Positions 1,675 through 63,860 of a DNA stretch of 64,000 bases are shown in pieces. The position numbers were made by a program, and so were the translations under genes. This stretch comes from a virus (lineage: Duplodnaviria; Caudoviricetes). The notes beneath the pieces were generated by a model. It did no database searches. It saw only the letters and a program-made list of their open reading frames with translations, and was not told where the DNA came from. Position 1 is the first letter of the stretch, and each line of letters begins with the position of its first letter. The stretch covers positions 4,864 through 68,863 of IMG/VR virus record IMGVR_UViG_2879448870_000003; one strand, given 5' to 3'.

Positions 1675-3593
1675 AGACAGAATATACAGCAGCGTACTTA
1701 TTCGGAGGTATCGGTGGGGGAGCGCTCGGGTTCAAGGGGGCCAGAGCTGAGTACATGAACAAAGTCGCTCACTTCCGCAGCCTATGCAGCATCGATTCCG
1801 ATCCCATAGTTTGCCGAAATTACGAACAGATTACAGGAGGCAGGGCTGTTCAAATGGATTTGTTCAATCGACAGCAATATCTTGATTTCCACGGAGTAGA
1901 TGAGCCTCCAGCAGTTTGGCATGAGGCGGAAGCTTGGGATATCTGGAAAGCTTTTGGCGAAGAAGTTCCGGATGTTATTTTCACTTCACCACCTTGTAAA
2001 GGGTTCAGTGGTTTGCTCCCGGAGAAGTCAGCCAGCAGCAAAAAGTATCAGGCGCTGAATCTCTTAACAATTCGAGGAATCGATCTCTCCTTGCGGGCCT
2101 GCCGGGATTACGGCGGCGAACTTCCTGCGCTGTTCTTACTTGAAAATGTTCCGCGCATTATGACGAGAGGGAAGCACATCCTCAAAAAGATCAAGGACAC
2201 TCTCATCAAATACGGATATGCGGTCAATGATGAAACTCACGACTGCGGAGAAATCGGCGGATTAGGGCAACATCGCAAGCGGTACTTGCTTATAGCCAGA
2301 AATGAGAAGCGCATGCCGGCCTTTGTGTATAAGCCAGAGGTTAAGCCTTTGAAAACTATCGGTGATGTAATAGGACACCTGCCGATGCCTGGGGATGAAG
2401 TAAACGGAGGACCAATGAATCGCCTCCCAATGCTTCAGCGGAAGACATGGGAACGGTTAGCCTTTATCCCGGCTGGTGGTGATTGGCGAGATCTTGAAGG
2501 CATTGAGTCTGAAAAGTACAGGCTCGAACACGAACCCCGTGCCGGAGCATGGGCAGTTGATGAATGGGATAAGCCAGGGAGAACAGTAACGGGCGGCGCG
2601 GGTGTTGGTAGGAGTAACGGCCTGTCGGCGGTAAACGACCCAAGAACGGGCTTCAAGAACGGCACGCACCCAACTATATACCGTGTGTCAAAATATGATG
2701 AGGTGAGCTCGACAGTAACCGGCGCAGCGCGTCCCAACAATGGAGCACTATCTGTAGGTGATCCAAGGCTCAACGATCGAGAGGGAAGGCATCCCGGAGT
2801 TTATCGGATTGTGCGATGCGATGAACCAGCCCCTTGCGTAACAGGAACAAGATTTGGTAGTGGAGCATTAGCTATCGCCGATCCTCGTACCCCTGGGGAT
2901 CACTACGATGGTGATTACAACAGAGTGGATGTGTATGGAGTGCAGGACTGGGATAAGACCTCTAAGACGGTCAGAGGCGCAGCCAGGATAATGAATTCCG
3001 CTTCATCTGTAGCAGACCCGAGGCTGAATACAAGGAGTCAACGCTATCCCGGAACATTCCGAGTGGAAGACTGGGATGAAGCAGCAAATACAGTCCTTGG
3101 GCAGACAGACGTTCAATGCGGCGCGGCATCGATTAATGATCCGAGACTGGGATGCAAGCCGAGATCAGGATCTTATGGTGTACAAAAGTGGGATGAAACG
3201 GGCACTACAGTAACAGGTTCTGGAGACGTGCATTCCGGTAATGCAGCTATTGCAGATCCGCGAATACCGGAATATAACGAGCGTTGTGTAATGATGATCA
3301 TTTCTGTGGATGGGACTTGGCACAGGCCGTTTACAACGTATGAGTTGGCGGTCGGTCTGCAAGGGTTTCCGAAATACTTGCTTGACGGTAGGCCGTTTCA
3401 GATTGACGGTTGCAGCGATGCTAAGGCAAGAGAGTATGTGGGCAATGCCGTTCCCCCGGATGCTGCAGAGGGGATGGCAAATGTAATCCTCATGGCAATG
3501 GTAATGTCAGAGCATGGCGTGAGTTTTGAGATGAGTTGGAATCTAGTGTGGGTACAACCTGAACTGAAACAAGAAATTGCACTTATTCACTGA
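1671..3593 (+). CDS. DNA (cytosine-5) methyltransferase with internally repeated variable region
   Basis: Motif I LFGGIGG, catalytic SPPCKGFS, motif VI LENV, motif VIII QHRKR, motif X GNAVPP; ~6 repeats ending A(I/V)xDPR. Confidence 0.92.
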   Translation: MKTEYTAAYLFGGIGGGALGFKGARAEYMNKVAHFRSLCSIDSDPIVCRNYEQITGGRAVQMDLFNRQQYLDFHGVDEPPAVWHEAEAWDIWKAFGEEVPDVIFTSPPCKGFSGLLPEKSASSKKYQALNLLTIRGIDLSLRACRDYGGELPALFLLENVPRIMTRGKHILKKIKDTLIKYGYAVNDETHDCGEIGGLGQHRKRYLLIARNEKRMPAFVYKPEVKPLKTIGDVIGHLPMPGDEVNGGPMNRLPMLQRKTWERLAFIPAGGDWRDLEGIESEKYRLEHEPRAGAWAVDEWDKPGRTVTGGAGVGRSNGLSAVNDPRTGFKNGTHPTIYRVSKYDEVSSTVTGAARPNNGALSVGDPRLNDREGRHPGVYRIVRCDEPAPCVTGTRFGSGALAIADPRTPGDHYDGDYNRVDVYGVQDWDKTSKTVRGAARIMNSASSVADPRLNTRSQRYPGTFRVEDWDEAANTVLGQTDVQCGAASINDPRLGCKPRSGSYGVQKWDETGTTVTGSGDVHSGNAAIADPRIPEYNERCVMMIISVDGTWHRPFTTYELAVGLQGFPKYLLDGRPFQIDGCSDAKAREYVGNAVPPDAAEGMANVILMAMVMSEHGVSFEMSWNLVWVQPELKQEIALIH

Positions 3594-4239: not shown

Positions 4240-4917
4240 ATGGGAGAGCATCAGACATTTTGGAAACCGGTCAAGGAAGTTAAGGAGAAAAAGACCTATA
4301 GCAGTCTGGGGTCAAATAAATCCAAGGCTAAGAAGGAAGTTCCAGAATGGAAGAAGGATCTCCTTGCTCATCACAAATCAGGAAAGAGTTCGAAAGATCG
4401 GTGTGATTTTACAGATGAAGTAATTGCTGAGCTCATTGCAGAGCAAGGTGAAATATGCCCGTGCTGTAAGACTGCGGCATCCTCTACTACACACCACGTG
4501 TGGCCTAGAGGCCGGAAGGGTCGGGGAGTCAAGACAAACGGCCTCAGAGTCTGCTGGCCCTGTCATGACAAGATCCAAACGACCGATGAACTCCTTCAAT
4601 ATTGGATTTCAGTATACCGTGAGAAATATGGAGATCATTTTTACTTTGACGAAAAAGACTGGGAAGAATTCAACCACAAGCAAAATGCTCTACAGCAGAA
4701 AGAGCACGAGAAACAGGAACGACAGAATCAAATTAAACCAGTTGTTGATTTGCTCTCAGCAGCAGCCGGACGAAATCTCAAAGCAACTGAAATACGCTTA
4801 CTGCAGTCTTTCGAGGATAAGGACATGGCGATATTCGCCAGTATGATGGCAGATGCATTGGGAAGAGCAGCAGAGCCTGCACCGGTCTATAGCTACGGTG
4901 AACGGTTCGAGGACTAA
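4240..4917 (+). CDS. HNH endonuclease domain protein
   Basis: CPCC...HHVWPRG...NGLRVCWPCHD. Confidence 0.85.
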   Translation: MGEHQTFWKPVKEVKEKKTYSSLGSNKSKAKKEVPEWKKDLLAHHKSGKSSKDRCDFTDEVIAELIAEQGEICPCCKTAASSTTHHVWPRGRKGRGVKTNGLRVCWPCHDKIQTTDELLQYWISVYREKYGDHFYFDEKDWEEFNHKQNALQQKEHEKQERQNQIKPVVDLLSAAAGRNLKATEIRLLQSFEDKDMAIFASMMADALGRAAEPAPVYSYGERFED

Positions 4918-4929
4918 GGAGGTACAACA

Positions 4930-5523
4930 TTGAAGAAGCTTCCAACAAAACGAATAAGGGATAGCCATCCTCAGCTTGGTACAAAAGAGGAGTGCTACCA
5001 GAATCACTATAAGATGGTTCATGAGGTTGCGAAGAAATTCGGACACTTGAGATTCCAAGGCATTGATCCGGACGATTTAGTCAGCGAGGGAACCATTGGA
5101 TTATTGATGGCTTATGACAGATTCGACCCCGGCAAAACATCGGCTAAGAAGTTTTCAACGTTTGCCTATCCATATATTAAAGGCTTCATTCTTAGATACC
5201 TGGAAACCAGAGCACAATTAATTCACATCCCGTTTCATTCAGGCTTGCAACCCAAATCAATCACAAGGTTAGATCGAATGATCAAATTCAAGGATGGAAC
5301 TGAGCTTGGATTGGCGGAAACAATCGCAGATGAAGAAGATGATACGGAGCTTGCGGTTAATCAGTTCATTTGTGCTCTGACTCCGGTGGAGCAAGAGACT
5401 GTAAGAATGATGATGGACGGTTACTTACATCGTGAGATAGGAAAAGCGGTAGGAGTATCAGCGAATACTATAGGCCAATACAAAAATAGGATTGCACTGA
5501 AATACATTCAAATTGCTCAATAA
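4930..5523 (+). CDS. Sigma-70 family RNA polymerase sigma factor (phage-encoded)
   Basis: Region 2 DPDDLVSEGTIGLLMAYDRFDP..KFSTFAYPYIKG; region 4 HTH HREIGKAVGVSANTI. Confidence 0.88.
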   Translation: MKKLPTKRIRDSHPQLGTKEECYQNHYKMVHEVAKKFGHLRFQGIDPDDLVSEGTIGLLMAYDRFDPGKTSAKKFSTFAYPYIKGFILRYLETRAQLIHIPFHSGLQPKSITRLDRMIKFKDGTELGLAETIADEEDDTELAVNQFICALTPVEQETVRMMMDGYLHREIGKAVGVSANTIGQYKNRIALKYIQIAQ

Positions 5524-5579: not shown

Positions 5580-6326
5580 ATGTCGTTGGAAAACAGCATC
5601 AAAGACGTTATCACTAAGAAACTTGAGGACGGGACGATCGAGAAACTGATTGCAGAACAATTAGAAAACGGAATCAAGAACGCTCTTAAGGATCTGCTCG
5701 GTTCTTATGGCGATGTAACAAAGGTCATCGAAAAGCAAGTTAAATCCGTAATGATTCCTTATTTGGAAAATTACGATTATAGCGAATACATCACTAAGCT
5801 TGATTCTGTTTTAGTGGATGTGCTGAAAAGTTCGGCGCTTGAGAACAAAAAGATGCTGGAAAACTTCAAGGATTTAATGATTCCAGAAGAAATGGAAACT
5901 ATCAAAGTAACTGATTTGTTTGAACGTTGGAAGAAATACGTAGAGCACAACGTTGAAACCGATGATCTTGAGGTTTGTTACGAAGACGGACCGCCATCTT
6001 TCGAATATGTGGATGTACGTTTTGAAGTTGAATTTAACGAAGAACGGTCTTGGAGCAGTGTAAAACATGCAGTATTGGTTTTTGAATGTGAGCATGACAA
6101 GAAAATGAACTTCGAAATTCGAATTCACACATGGCCTGAATTCGACAAAGGAAAATGGACAATCGAACGCAATTCAATTCACGATATTAATTCACTAAGA
6201 TACTTGGATGAGTTTTCAATACTCCTAATGAAACTCAACCAAAATGGGACGAAGCTAATCCTTGATTCTGATTCTGAAGGCGATGAAATTAAACCTGATA
6301 AAGAACCAGAAGCAAGTTTCTCTTAA
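5580..6326 (+). CDS. Conserved phage hypothetical protein
   Basis: AAGGAG RBS; ~248 aa acidic ORF. Confidence 0.7.
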   Translation: MSLENSIKDVITKKLEDGTIEKLIAEQLENGIKNALKDLLGSYGDVTKVIEKQVKSVMIPYLENYDYSEYITKLDSVLVDVLKSSALENKKMLENFKDLMIPEEMETIKVTDLFERWKKYVEHNVETDDLEVCYEDGPPSFEYVDVRFEVEFNEERSWSSVKHAVLVFECEHDKKMNFEIRIHTWPEFDKGKWTIERNSIHDINSLRYLDEFSILLMKLNQNGTKLILDSDSEGDEIKPDKEPEASFS

Positions 6327-6386
6327 TTATTGATTCTGAGATAAGTCGGGGCGTAAATCGCCCCCTAATAAAGGAGCTGAAAAGTA

Positions 6387-7022
6387 ATGAGTAATGAAAA
6401 AAAGCAAGCGATATTGGATGTTTTGAACAGCCTGGAAGTTGTGGATCAACAGGGCGGAGATGATGCGTATATTTTGGTTGATGTAACGCCGGAAATGGTA
6501 GATAAGCTTGGCGTAGTGGGGGTTCCTCAAGAAACCCTTCATAAATACGGCGATGCCGAAACAGTTTGCATCTTGGCTCTGGCATTTGGTGAGGGCTACG
6601 CAAACGGGTTTCAAAAAGATAAATTGGTCTATTACGCTCCTGGAACAATCAATTATCTTGTTCAAGATGCTCATAGTAATGCAGTAGATAAGGGCTGGTG
6701 GGACGAGGACCGGAGCTTCGGGGAGATTATTGCTCTTATCCACTCAGAGGCATCAGAGGCGCTGGAAGATTATCGTAACGGAACTGCGCCAACAGAAATG
6801 TGGTTCGAAGCAAAGGATAAAGACACAGGTCATAAGGCAATTTCAACTGCGCAACATACACCTTACTGGAAACCATGCGGCATACCTTCCGAGCTGGCTG
6901 ATATCGTAATCCGCGTATTTGACGCTTGCGGTCGTTATGAAATTGATCTAGAGCAGGCGATCCGGGAGAAGATGGCCTACAATGCTACTCGGCCGCAGCG
7001 GCATGGAGGTAAGGTGCTATGA
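6387..7022 (+). CDS. MazG-like nucleotide pyrophosphohydrolase domain protein
   Basis: IALIHSEASEALE...SELADIVIRVFD...KMAYNATRP. Confidence 0.8.
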   Translation: MSNEKKQAILDVLNSLEVVDQQGGDDAYILVDVTPEMVDKLGVVGVPQETLHKYGDAETVCILALAFGEGYANGFQKDKLVYYAPGTINYLVQDAHSNAVDKGWWDEDRSFGEIIALIHSEASEALEDYRNGTAPTEMWFEAKDKDTGHKAISTAQHTPYWKPCGIPSELADIVIRVFDACGRYEIDLEQAIREKMAYNATRPQRHGGKVL

Positions 7023-8104: not shown

Positions 8105-8332
8105 ATGGAAGCAGGAGATCCGGGTGAAGCGAAGTTTCTCGCCAGTCTGAAAAAGATGATTCGGACAGCGAACAATGCTGCTGAGCGTAAGAACTATCAG
8201 CATGGGCAGATAGAGTTAGGCGCTATTGCACGGGTAATGGATGCCCAAAGTATAGAATCTGTACCTCCGGGAGTAGAACGGGTAATAGGGGCTTATTATG
8301 AACGGGTGACCGGGCGCAAGGCATACTACTGA
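8105..8332 (+). CDS. Hypothetical protein
   Basis: AAGGAG RBS. Confidence 0.6.
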   Translation: MEAGDPGEAKFLASLKKMIRTANNAAERKNYQHGQIELGAIARVMDAQSIESVPPGVERVIGAYYERVTGRKAYY

Positions 8333-58425: not shown

Positions 58426-59289
58426 TCAAATTATGAACTGTTCAAACACCGGCGTCCGGAGCATCCCAGATTTGGTCCAGTTTCTCATTCTTACCCGGGC
58501 TCGCAGGCGAGGATCCAGGTGTACAAACTCCTTATCCTCTCCGGTAACGAGTTGGCCGGCCACTCCCCTGAATGCTTGCTTGTGGAGCGGGGATGCCCCA
58601 AACTCAATTATCCCAGCCGGACGCAGTTTACCGGACGTACCGGAAGGTACTGCAGCAAGCCAGCCAAATTCCTGCTTACGATAACCTGTGATATACACCT
58701 CTGCATACGTCCAGTTAATTACCTTCTGCCAAGCATGGGAGCGGCGTCCAGTCTCATAGATGCTATTCTTGCGCTTGGCGACTACACCTTCCATGCCTCG
58801 GGCTTCTATTTGCTCAAACAGAGCCTCCCCTGCACCGTCTATGTGCGGCACTACGCCAAAGCTTACAGAGGGGAGGGATAATCCTGCCAGAATCTCTTTG
58901 CGGCGCAGGAGCGGCAGCCCACGCAGGTCTTGGCCTTTGTACTGCAGGATATCAAAGATGGCGTAATAGGCTGGAAGAGTAGCAGTGAGCTTGAGAATCT
59001 TGTCCGCCCGCCGGGACTGGAAACGGCTCATGACAGCCTCGAAATCTGATACCCCGGTTGTCGGATCTACGCAGGCGACCTCGCCGTCCAGGATTACATC
59101 ATCTTCAAACGGCAGCTGCAGTTCAGGGTACTGCCGGGTGCAGTCGTTATCGTGGCGGGTGTACAACCGGACCTTTCCGGCTTGCTGGGAGTATATCAGC
59201 CGGTGGCCGTCTATCTTTGGTTCATATATATAATCGCTGTGCGAAAATGGCCCGGGAGCCGTTTGCAGTAGCATAGGACTTATAAACAT
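58426..59289 (-). CDS. ATP-dependent DNA ligase (SPbeta LigB/YoqV-like)
   Basis: EPKIDGHR, LDGEV, FDIL, EGVVAK, WQKV. Confidence 0.93.
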   Translation of the reverse strand: MFISPMLLQTAPGPFSHSDYIYEPKIDGHRLIYSQQAGKVRLYTRHDNDCTRQYPELQLPFEDDVILDGEVACVDPTTGVSDFEAVMSRFQSRRADKILKLTATLPAYYAIFDILQYKGQDLRGLPLLRRKEILAGLSLPSVSFGVVPHIDGAGEALFEQIEARGMEGVVAKRKNSIYETGRRSHAWQKVINWTYAEVYITGYRKQEFGWLAAVPSGTSGKLRPAGIIEFGASPLHKQAFRGVAGQLVTGEDKEFVHLDPRLRARVRMRNWTKSGMLRTPVFEQFII

Positions 59290-61089: not shown

Positions 61090-61106
61090 CAAAGCCCCGT
61101 CAGTGA

Positions 61107-61277
61107 TTATACTGGCGGGGTTCCACGTTTTTCTGCAGTTATTCTATTAACAATTACGCTGACCGTGCATTTCTCGCGGTCGGCTTCTTCGCGTAACCAT
61201 TCCAACAATTCAGGTTCAAAGTAGATGGCCTCACGAATTTTCTTTTCACCTTCGGCTTTCGGTGGTCTTCCAGCCAT
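61107..61277 (-). CDS. Ribbon-helix-helix (CopG/Arc-like) regulator
   Basis: MAGRPPKAEGEKKIREAIYFEPELLEWLREEADREKCTVSVIVNRI; AAGGAG RBS; not in ORF track. Confidence 0.75.
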   Translation of the reverse strand: MAGRPPKAEGEKKIREAIYFEPELLEWLREEADREKCTVSVIVNRITAEKRGTPPV

Positions 61278-61416
61278 GAAATCACACTCCTTGTCCTAAT
61301 GAATTTTACAGCATTTAAAAATATTTAGCAATATTATAAATCACCTATTTACAAGCATTTAAAAGCATGTTAAATTAGATTTATCAACAAGGCAACCTTA
61401 AAGGAGCGTGAAGAGA

Positions 61417-61815: not shown

Positions 61816-61844
61816 CATGGGCTACGGCCCCTCTAAAGGAGGAA

Positions 61845-62231
61845 GTGAAGCTTATGAGCCGTCAAGAAGAGGTCCAGCGATATGCGGAAATGATAATTGA
61901 AGAAGGGGATGGATACCGTTACCCAACTGCGGTCGGGATAATTAGAGCAACCATCACCGGTGATCAGTCGCCATTTGCAAAACTTCGGCGAATTGAAAAT
62001 GTCTTATCTGCTCTGGACCTTGTATATAAGCAGAGTGTGGACAGCAGGGATTGGGCAACAGTGCTGGAGCATAAGGGACGTAAAATCCAGGTACTTAAAA
62101 GAGTTGGCTCGGGAGATCCATTTGGATACCGAATTGAGCCACCCTTGCCGTATGCCGCAAACCCGGAATGCTTGACGTATTACTATGACACCATAGGTGA
62201 GGCAATAGAGAGTATCGATGAATCCGCCTGA
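61845..62231 (+). CDS. Hypothetical protein
   Basis: AAGGAGG RBS; stop codon lies in the ribozyme core. Confidence 0.65.
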   Translation: MKLMSRQEEVQRYAEMIIEEGDGYRYPTAVGIIRATITGDQSPFAKLRRIENVLSALDLVYKQSVDSRDWATVLEHKGRKIQVLKRVGSGDPFGYRIEPPLPYAANPECLTYYYDTIGEAIESIDESA

Positions 62232-62297
62232 TGAGCGCTGAGAGCGCCTCGGACCGGTTGCGGGACTGGTCGAAACCTTGAGCAATATGGTCGCGGA
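62223..62297 (+). ncRNA. Hammerhead-ribozyme-like motif (type I topology, branched stem II)
   Basis: Stem I TCCGC/GCGGA; CUGAUGA 62228-34; GAAA 62272-75; stem III CC/GG; GUC at 62290-92. Confidence 0.7.
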
Positions 62298-62348
62298 ATC
62301 CGTCATACGAGGGCTGCGCGCGTCCTCAATGCATAGGAGTGATAGATA

Positions 62349-62594
62349 ATGTTATATGCTCATGAACGAATGGCAGAGTTATGGACTATTCAAAAAAATC
62401 GGCCACTGAAGAATTCGGAAAAATTGGAGATGGATATTTGCCATCAAGCAAATGCTCTGTACTGCTGGGATTGGGCAAGACTTAAGCATTTTTCTGTAAT
62501 TGCTTCTGAGACTAATGACGTGGGATTACATCACGAAATATGTGCTCAGATTGAGGAATTACAACTTACCGGGAAGGTCACTAAGAAACATTGA
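62349..62594 (+). CDS. Small helical hypothetical protein
   Basis: AGGAGTG RBS; HERMAELW...CHQANA...HHEICAQIE. Confidence 0.7.
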   Translation: MLYAHERMAELWTIQKNRPLKNSEKLEMDICHQANALYCWDWARLKHFSVIASETNDVGLHHEICAQIEELQLTGKVTKKH

Positions 62595-62706
62595 AAGAAC
62601 GCCGCCTGATAGGCCTATATCGTAGTAAATAAGTTGTATACGCTATACCAGGACCAGATATATAATTAACCTATTGAATGAAAATTATGTCAGGCGGTGT
62701 TGTGTC

Positions 62707-63336
62707 GTGTCGTGGGAACCTGTAAGTTTTGTTTTTTTCTCAACCTTAGAGTTTGTAGCTATTTATTGTATCATTTGCGCTTTATTTAGATTCAAACCAA
62801 CGGAAATTATTTTTCCTGCATTATTCATCATACTGCTAATGGATTTGCAAAGCTTCATTTTCAGAGAGGATCTACAATTAACCGAAATTGTGCCATTGAT
62901 TAATATTTTATTGTACATCTTATTATTTACAATCGTGATGCGTATACCGCTGATCTGGTCGGCTGTTATTTCTGTCATGGGGTATTTTGCTTACGTGCTC
63001 CTGCAAGTCGCATTAGTCCAATTATCATTTGGATATTTATCTGTAAATGAATTAGCATTACATCCCGAAAAAGGGTACTTACTGCAGGCTATGAGTAGTG
63101 TGATTGGTATTGGTGGAGCTTATCTATTTTATATGTTTGGCGGAGGATTTACATTTGATTTTGAAAAGTTGAGGTTAAAACGCGAAGCAATTTATGTGTA
63201 CACACTTATTGGTAGTGCGCTTTTACTAACAGTATGGCTTCTATATAAAGGCAACACGTTGACTGATGTTATATCAGTGTCGATTGCATTTATCTTCTTT
63301 ACTTACTATGCAATAAAGAAGGAGAAGGAAAGATGA
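62707..63336 (+). CDS. Polytopic membrane protein resembling an AgrC-type sensor domain, with no kinase
   Basis: About seven hydrophobic helices; ATGA overlap with agrB; no H-box or ATPase motifs. Confidence 0.65.
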   Translation: MSWEPVSFVFFSTLEFVAIYCIICALFRFKPTEIIFPALFIILLMDLQSFIFREDLQLTEIVPLINILLYILLFTIVMRIPLIWSAVISVMGYFAYVLLQVALVQLSFGYLSVNELALHPEKGYLLQAMSSVIGIGGAYLFYMFGGGFTFDFEKLRLKREAIYVYTLIGSALLLTVWLLYKGNTLTDVISVSIAFIFFTYYAIKKEKER

Positions 63337-63860
63337 TAGATTTTCTCTCCTTGAGGATCGCTCAAGGAATAAAGAAGGGCGCTCCTGACAGTACAGTATC
63401 TATTGCCGTTATGAAGTATGCTTTATCAATCATTATAAACGCGTCAATGATAATCTCTCTATCGTTACTGTTCTCAATTTTTACAGGGAAGACAGTTGAA
63501 GTAGCAATAGCACTTGTGGCGTTCCCTTTACTACGACAGGTTTCTGGTGGGTATCACATGCAATCAGGATTGAAATGCATCGTGTTTTCGACAATATTAA
63601 TAACTGCAATATCCCTTGCCAATTTCGGATACTGGACTATCGTGACATTAGGGATCGTAAGTTTTATACTCGTGGCATTATTTGCTCCATCGAAAATTGA
63701 GAGACAATCGCGGATACCCAGAAAATTCTATCCATTCTTAAAAGTTGTCTCTCTGATAATCGTATCAACTAATTTTTTATTGGTTTCATCAGTTCTCAGC
63801 GCGACATTCTTTGCACAGGGCATCTCGCTGATTCACATGAAGGGAGGTGACAACAAATGA
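63333..63860 (+). CDS. agrB: AgrB family autoinducer-processing protein
   Basis: LRQVSGGYH...C motif, FAPS; multi-TM. Confidence 0.92.
   Translation: MIDFLSLRIAQGIKKGAPDSTVSIAVMKYALSIIINASMIISLSLLFSIFTGKTVEVAIALVAFPLLRQVSGGYHMQSGLKCIVFSTILITAISLANFGYWTIVTLGIVSFILVALFAPSKIERQSRIPRKFYPFLKVVSLIIVSTNFLLVSSVLSATFFAQGISLIHMKGGDNK

Follow-up and report, generated by a model that had tools for sequence, protein, structure and literature searches.

Can a hammerhead ribozyme carry a fourth helix in nature? The hammerhead is the best-studied of the small ribozymes, its three-helix junction is treated as defining, and the question is raised here by a short element found in a provirus of the Caudoviricetes (IMG/VR record IMGVR_UViG_2879448870_000003). 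The stretch of DNA that was analysed, hereafter referred to as the window, comprises 64,000 nucleotides (nt) of this record (positions 4,864 to 68,863). An earlier note, made from the letters of the window, had drawn a hammerhead with a branched stem II at 62223-62297 of the + strand, and its letters and coordinates match the sequence letter for letter. This segment holds the full type I hammerhead core (CUGAUGA / GAAA / UC), a stem I of 5 base pairs (bp), a stem III of 3 bp and, in the place of stem II, two hairpins. Comparison with related sequences suggests that the element is probably a type I self-cleaving hammerhead from a phage-borne lineage, with four helices, in which a hairpin and a linker amounting together to 17 nt (62235-62251) are inserted at the junction between A9 and stem II.

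Core and helices of the element in the window

The conserved bases of the hammerhead (C3 U4 G5 A6 N7 G8 A9, G12 A13 A14, the A15.1-U16.1 pair and H17) are all present and stand in hammerhead order. Stem I lies outside the core, with its first pair directly adjoining it, and stem III is closed by a loop and starts with A15.1-U16.1, both as in type I hammerheads. Stem II is not a single helix running directly from A9 to G12: two hairpins, referred to as hp1 and hp2, and the linker that joins them occupy its place (Table 1). C62271 may pair with G62235, as the earlier note had drawn it, or with G62252, which is preferred by the energy model and by the relatives of the element. The former pairing leaves a stem II of 1 bp followed by a branch and keeps both strand continuities, and the latter makes of the 17 nt an insertion after A9. 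On sequence grounds the two drawings are equally possible, G62235 and G62252 both being invariant. The scissile position of the hammerhead consensus follows H17 (any base but G), which would here be C62292.

A descriptor of our own, composed of the core, one closing pair for stem II, at least 2 further stem III pairs and a stem I of at least 4 pairs, matched the window at 62223-62297 only, both strands being scanned. Among 2000 dinucleotide shuffles of the window, 0.8% contained a match with a stem I of at least 5 pairs and 2.9% one with at least 4 pairs; the motif is unexpected for one window, yet frequent by chance across a scan of many windows. The minimum-energy fold of the window copy includes stem I and both hairpins. 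Taken by itself, the window is weak evidence for a hammerhead, and it is the relatives of the element that decide the matter.

A family of four-helix copies within a lineage of phage hammerheads

Nine further copies were fetched by DNA patterns, from the viral contigs L004, L005, L007, L010 and L013 and from the metagenome contigs L027, L031, L035 and L044, and the family alignment consists of these nine sequences and the window. Chance matches were removed by eye and by their score with the family model, R1 (5 of 8 and 3 of 8 stretches in the viral scans, 32 of 37 in the metagenome scan): the ten members score 82-105 bits, and the other pattern-matched stretches, rejected as G+C-rich coding sequence without hairpins, at most 20 bits. 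When the viral contigs were scanned with a pattern free of core letters, made of linker, hp2 and stem III letters, 13 stretches were returned, 8 of them unrelated and the others the same five viral members, with an intact core in all five. Protein-anchored scans of the viral contigs with two flanking proteins found nothing, nor did blastn of the phage collection, and a scan of genome contigs gave only one distant match, in a Chthonomonas metagenome-assembled genome (L001). A tenth further copy was seen in X9, one of four public sequencing runs, available as contigs only, that were compared with the stretch. On its 5221-base contig, which was detected through shared words alone, neither the core nor stem I nor hp1 differs from the window; one hp2 pair is changed from G-U to G-C and another is lost, and four small insertions and two substitutions in the stem III loop build a longer hairpin.

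All 13 core bases (CUGAUGA, GAAA, UC) are invariant in the ten family sequences. Among the six sequences that were ascertained without the core, none of the 13 core columns varies, against 31 of the 69 other ungapped columns; 12 of the 21 unpaired non-core columns vary in the same six sequences. The hammerhead structure with two hairpins places 86.6% of the alignment cells in standard pairs; sliding the 3' partners by 1-3 columns lowers this share to 26.9-38.4%. In the ten-sequence alignment four pairs are altered on both sides, and the covariation score of 0.131, for a shuffle mean of 0.088, is reached by 0 of 500 shuffles.

Covariation is clearest in hp2, where 96.3% of the cells are paired and where one pair occurs as G-U, U-G, C-G or U-A and another as C-G or U-A. 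The hp1 stem (GCGC/GCGC) is maintained, with two one-sided changes from C-G to U-G and two broken cells, around a loop that differs in length and sequence (UGAGA, AUAA, ACCAA, UGUG, CAAUAAU), and this stem and the linker are as invariant as the core. Stem III is found in two unrelated sequence versions, both foldable, with 8-11 pairs in the relatives. The first version, CCUACCGG...CCGGGAUGG, is carried by most members; the second forms a perfect 9-bp helix in L035, and the window copy is a shortened form of this L035 type with three pairs left. Stem I reads UCCGC/GCGGA in five sequences; in L035, where both sides of the fifth pair have changed from U-A to A-U, it reads ACCGC/GCGGU. It is weakened in the L007 group by three A inserted in the 5' strand, and in L007, L013 and L044 also by a change from G to A.

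Without any given structure, RNAalifold recovers hp1, hp2 and stem III. It also draws an outer helix (CUG.UG/CGCGG), which was rejected because each of its pairs is either invariant or altered in one strand only, and because stem I shows covariation in the lineage described below. Constraining the fold to the hammerhead costs 1.2-1.5 kcal/mol relative to the minimum in 6 of the 10 members and 2.5-4.1 kcal/mol in the L007 group. A reading as a terminator was discarded, no U run following any of the hairpins, as was a functional RNA on the complementary strand, where the G-U pairs of the + strand (e.g. 6 G-U at one hp2 pair) would become A-C. Because these G-U pairs occur on the + strand, the RNA is assigned to it, the same strand as that of the flanking genes.

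The family model also matches three sites in the metagenome locus L048. This locus contains four compact type I motifs within 2.1 kb, each right after a small open reading frame (ORF), and these motifs have the stem III frame of the four-helix family (ACC-UA-hairpin-GAU-GGU). In the motif at 5905-5967, 14 unpaired bases separate A9 from the stem II hairpin. A pattern combining core and stem III frame found 39 viral stretches, and the lineage was counted as the 52 sites matching core and frame, with no condition on stem I. Over the first four stem I positions of these 52 sites, 193 of 208 cells are paired, with 4-6 pair types at each position, compared with 55-80 cells when the partners are slid. 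Because stem I, which lay outside the search pattern, covaries so strongly, we consider the members of the lineage to be genuine hammerheads. Beside the type I site, Rfam called a Hammerhead_II in L066 (2656-2723, - strand) and in L076 (2519-2587, - strand).

A stem II segment of 36-37 nt with two hairpins is present in all ten family members and in 0 of the 42 other lineage sites. Forty of the latter have one hairpin in a segment shorter than 30 nt, one is the L048 site with 14 unpaired bases before its hairpin (31 nt), and one (L074) is a chance match. It is this segment, in the place of the single hairpin of 12-21 nt of canonical members, that distinguishes the family from prophage and phage type I hammerheads. 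In seven canonical members one additional U stands between A9 and G10.1, and among these are L084, L095, L071 and L083, the most similar to the family in stem III and 3' flank (L084 and L095 share its stem III frame and have similar 3' flanks). Because the most family-like members carry the extra U at that very junction, hp2 is read as the counterpart of stem II, and hp1 with the linker as a segment inserted where A9 meets G10.1. A short stem III is also found in the canonical members L075 and L086.

Another expanded form was observed at three sites (Table 1), with a stem II segment of 43 nt consisting of a 6-bp stem around 2.5 tandem copies of a 12-nt repeat. The scan for longer stem II segments returned 8 stretches, including the family member L004 and four chance matches with a stem I of 0-1 pairs (L104, L106, L107 and L109).

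The earlier note had named the conservation of the core in homologous loci and covariation as checks of its proposal, and both speak for it: the core is conserved in ten of ten sequences, the hairpins covary and the element nests in a canonical phage type I lineage. Its two hairpins in place of stem II hold throughout the family, and the comparative evidence supports its prediction of cleavage after C62292.

A pseudoknot is a common means of holding stems I and II together in hammerheads (Perreault et al. 2011, PMC3088659). At least 4 Watson-Crick complements of the stem II loop lie in the 14 nt after stem I at 19 of 48 lineage sites, compared with a mean of 8.4 and a maximum of 15 sites when shuffled loops (n = 500) are submitted to the same test, and the partner sequences vary between sites. 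In the window the hp2 loop GCGG (62260-62263) could form 3 Watson-Crick pairs and 1 G-U pair with CCGU (62300-62303), and a C at 62303 in X9 makes this pairing fully Watson-Crick. Within the four-helix family both partners are nearly invariant and no covariation is found there. The segment downstream also repeats the 5' strand of stem I, so that the 3' product of cleavage can begin with a hairpin (62293-62303 in the window). Such a hairpin, with at least 4 pairs, is found at 25 of the 48 lineage sites, whereas 1000 shuffles gave 3.5 sites on average and 9 at most, and it covaries, as GCGG...CCGC or GUGG...CCAC. We infer that, once the RNA has been cut, this hairpin sequesters the 3' strand of stem I and protects the newly formed 5' end. 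A separate 6-bp hairpin was read by eye further downstream, at 62309-62327 (+ strand) in the leader of the next gene; it is kept in L004, L005, L010, L027 and L035, with one G-C pair replaced by A-U in L010.

Single-base insertions at A9/G10.1 are present in some viroid-like hammerheads, and the extra U of the seven canonical lineage members lies at this same site; the four-helix family differs from all of these by 17 nt that form a helix of their own instead of one bulged base. Hairpin and twister-sister ribozymes, which have four-way junctions, resemble the element in outline only, by their four helices around a junction; their conserved bases and cleavage sites are unrelated to it, and no Rfam match to either class was obtained. 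The prophage and phage type I hammerheads (PMC3088659; RF00163) have in common with the element the core order, an open stem I and a cleavage predicted after H17, and those described in PMC3088659 also an intergenic position between co-directional phage genes; their pseudoknot, which joins the stem II loop to the extension of stem I, is one that the element may form as well. With G62235 paired to C62271, a lone G10.1-C11.1 pair would adjoin the core, as in the case of Figure 4 of Perreault et al. 2011 (PMC3088659), and a pseudoknot with the 3' tail could stabilise it; that case, as the figure presents it, has no branches, whereas here the single pair would close a three-way junction with two hairpins. 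Engineered aptazymes (e.g. PMC12747935) similarly carry an additional folded domain at the stem II side of an intact core. These constructs are synthetic and extend stem II end-on via a bridge, whereas the element of the window is natural, branches where stem II begins and is not known to bind a ligand. In the literature searched, including PMC3088659 and PMC10085705, no hammerhead occurring in nature was found whose stem II is branched or doubled; the supplementary alignments of these two papers might hold one.

Gene order, transcript and proposed mechanism

The record is a provirus, and its host is probably a Paenibacillus. The ORF upstream of the element matched no Pfam family and has two close relatives, one of them from Paenibacillus graminis. 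Profile positions 1-56 and 64-124 of its 128-aa (amino-acid) product match different small proteins of about 60 aa, and this product looks like a fusion of two domains that are separate elsewhere. DUF7667 is the first gene after the predicted cut, with its start codon 56 nt beyond the site, and is followed by the genes of a membrane protein and of an AgrB-family protein. The agr-like cassette that the earlier note had tentatively placed after the 62349 ORF is thus present; it lies near the end of the provirus and recurs in several related phage contigs. A DNA ligase gene (ATP-dependent; PF01068, E 1.3e-29) is also carried by the provirus, at 58426-59289 of the - strand.

Table 1. Positions of the parts of the element, of the neighbouring genes and of hammerhead motifs in other loci (window coordinates unless a locus is named)
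Feature	Positions	Strand	Remarks
Upstream ORF	61845-62231	+	128 aa from GTG, 125 aa from ATG at MSRQ
Stem I, 5' strand UCCGC	62223-62227	+	pairs with 62293-62297, 5 Watson-Crick pairs
Core strand C3-U4-G5-A6-U7-G8-A9 (CUGAUGA)	62228-62234	+	invariant in 10/10 family sequences
Extra hairpin hp1, GCGCU-GAG-AGCGC	62235-62247	+	not in canonical relatives
Linker CUCG joining hp1 to hp2	62248-62251	+	CUUG or UUUG in relatives
Hairpin hp2, counterpart of canonical stem II	62252-62271	+	8 bp, loop GCGG (62260-62263)
Core strand G12-A13-A14-A15.1 (GAAA)	62272-62275	+	invariant in 10/10 family sequences
Stem III	62275-62291	+	A-U, C-G, C-G (62275-62277 with 62289-62291), 11-nt loop
Core U-C	62291-62292	+	U62291, then cleavage-site base C62292 (C17)
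Predicted scissile bond C17 / G62293	62292..62293	+	from the hammerhead consensus
Stem I, 3' strand GCGGA	62293-62297	+	
CCGU	62300-62303	+	possible partner of hp2 loop GCGG or of 62293-62296
DUF7667 gene	62349-62594	+	81 aa; PF24704, E 1.4e-28; ribosome-binding site AGGAG 62335-62339
Membrane protein gene of the downstream cassette	62674-63336	+	220 aa
AgrB-family gene	63333-63860	+	PF04647, E 6.9e-20
Short ORF	from 63857		leaves the window at its end
L048, hammerhead motif	4317-4370		
L048, hammerhead motif	5318-5361		
L048, hammerhead motif	5905-5967		
L048, hammerhead motif	6357-6404		
L103, expanded 43-nt form	5922-6003		
L105, expanded 43-nt form	5842-5923	-	
L108, expanded 43-nt form	2582-2663	-	

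The cassette of DUF7667, membrane protein and AgrB follows the element in 6 of the 10 family loci (the window, L004, L005, L010, L027 and L035); the match to the membrane protein was not found in the cassette of L035, and the L004 contig ends before any AgrB position. A different gene lies downstream in the L007 group. The provirus of L013 holds, in addition to its four-helix copy, a second hammerhead-like site (8126-8201, + strand), which adjoins a downstream cassette of DUF7667, membrane protein and AgrB. It has a single stem II, a stem I of CCAC/GCGG with one A-C mismatch and a 3' flank resembling that of the four-helix family, and it looks like a recombination joint within stem I. The upstream partner of the element is variable, being a 72-aa ORF in L004 and a different segment in X9. 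In the latter the upstream gene of the window (61844-62223) is replaced by 187 other letters and homology restarts at 62224, one base inside the element; on this comparison the 5' edge of the candidate ribozyme is a mosaic boundary.

The + strand has a strong terminator-like site (61093-61122) and then a promoter-like site (61348-61376), and none of either kind was found between 61376 and 62674. Because of this absence, a single transcript probably spans the three small ORFs, the element and the genes that follow it. The element is situated as prophage hammerheads are (PMC3088659), between co-directional provirus genes and probably within a long transcript. Prophage hammerheads often have others close by, as is seen here in L048, L013, L066 and L076; only one hammerhead site was detected in the window itself. 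Prophage hammerheads flank genes and have been proposed to cut long phage transcripts into separate messages (PMC3088659). By analogy, cutting a long phage transcript into messages that are handled separately would be the best-supported role of the element.

The proposed course of events starts with transcription of the element within a polycistronic prophage message that would begin near 61380. Before cleavage, the hp2 loop may pair with CCGU, forming a pseudoknot that brings stems I and II together; the folded RNA would then cut itself between C62292 and G62293 and part the message of the upstream small ORFs from that of the DUF7667, membrane protein and AgrB-type cassette. The upstream message would retain its stop codon and end in a 2',3'-cyclic phosphate, and the new 5'-hydroxyl end of the downstream RNA could fold, with the same CCGU, into the short terminal hairpin at 62293-62303. 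The release of a downstream message, as suggested in the earlier note, is plausible on this arrangement, and the cut would free the message of the agr-type cassette with a structured 5'-hydroxyl leader.

Alternative readings and significance

Several observations weigh against a self-cleaving hammerhead with four helices. The insertion adjoins A9 and G10.1, a part of the core treated as sensitive in established structural work, and we know of no tested precedent for an insertion of 17 nt there. The window copy has lost part of the longer stem III hairpin that its relatives retain, scores lowest with the family model (82.3 bits) and has an ordinary fold energy (z = -0.86). Only two contiguous stem I pairs are found in L007, L013 and L044 and three in L031, and other pairings compete with the hammerhead, namely of the linker UU with A13-A14 and of an alternative outer helix. 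The family is shallow, with a mean column identity of 83%, and 4 of its 10 sequences were found with first patterns that contained core letters. Finally, no Rfam hammerhead match was obtained at E <= 10 for 62100-62420, nor for L027, L031, L035 and L044.

Rfam was equally silent at gathering thresholds over the whole window, and RF00163 matched neither the whole 68,863-base provirus record nor the records G000, G001 and G003; weak rows for small nucleolar, long noncoding and micro RNAs (E 0.05-10) were treated as noise. The search with Rfam hammerhead models, which the earlier note had named as a check, thus returns no match for the element, and it has little power here. At gathering thresholds, no type I site was called in 12 loci with canonical members of the lineage, and at E <= 10 there was no match on L048:4250-4440, which holds such a member. 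Because the canonical members are also missed, the silence of Rfam on the window copy weighs little, and the sizeable phage type I lineage brought to light here lies below the Rfam thresholds.

The main rival holds that the element derives from a hammerhead and is catalytically dead, the insertion of hp1 by A9 having abolished cleavage and the structure being kept as a leader, a protein-binding site or a signal for processing by an RNase. We regard it as a serious possibility, clearly less probable than an active ribozyme. The sensitive position of the insertion and the absence of an Rfam score would agree with it, as would a stem I that is weak in 4 of 10 members and the truncated stem III of the window copy; the linker and the hp1 stem equal the core in invariance, which is then not specific to catalytic bases. 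Against it stands the invariance of 13 of 13 core bases on three strands of the junction, for which a dead structure has no evident need, when variation is seen in 31 of 69 other columns. The stem II loop has also kept its possible pseudoknot partner, members that are otherwise canonical commonly have a single U inserted at this position, and Rfam misses canonical members too. Weak stems III are common in hammerheads (Perreault et al. 2011, PMC3088659). A functionless chance match of a loose descriptor in a G+C-rich intergenic stretch would be in keeping with the ordinary fold energy, the lack of any Rfam call and the 0.8% of shuffled windows that match, which imply many chance matches over a large scan. 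Ten homologous copies on different phage contigs with an invariant core and covarying helices, and the kinship with a lineage whose stem I covaries, contradict this explanation, to which we attach hardly any credence.

The position of the stop codon raises another alternative, in which an active ribozyme is gated by translation termination, the ribosome at the overlapping UGA unfolding stem I and the core, so that cleavage would hinge on whether the upstream ORF is translated. The TGA stop of the upstream ORF is indeed U4-G5-A6, and the two sense codons before it form the 5' strand of stem I. Of the 33 lineage sites that an ORF precedes, 9 use the core UGA as its stop, the window and L035 among them, and at 31 of the 33 the ORF ends inside the core or within 10 nt upstream of C3. 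Past the predicted cut, 17-70 nt usually separate it from the following start codon. However, in L004, L005, L007, L010, L027 and L031 the upstream ORF stops 5-10 nt before the core, with TAA or TGA, and in X9 the upstream segment is wholly different, with homology starting again at 62224. Moreover, the overlap needs no selection, because any ORF entering CUGAUGA in that frame must stop. Such gating is therefore improbable, and the overlap pointed out in the earlier note, real in the window and in L035, is incidental: it is one outcome of a generally tight packing and not a feature of the four-helix family. The same six members speak against the coupling of cleavage to termination as a special feature of the locus.

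On balance, we take the element to be a genuine hammerhead that belongs to a known lineage of phages and represents a new variant in structure, and we consider it probably active. It is conceivable, though we consider it unlikely, that hp1 is a regulatory domain which binds a phage or host factor, either a protein or a small molecule, and thereby turns the ribozyme on or off; the surface recognised would then be formed by the hp1 stem and the linker, which are invariant like the core. If this were true, the element would be a natural allosteric hammerhead that times the release of the agr-type quorum-sensing message of a prophage.

A fourth helix conserved in nature next to A9 and G10.1 would mean that the core can accommodate an entire domain at this place, and the four-helix form would give structural biologists a natural example of the scaffold so far built by hand in aptazymes. 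For the biology of these phages, a ribozyme tied to a phage-borne agr-like cassette would offer a testable case for the view that prophage hammerheads separate the fates of neighbouring messages.

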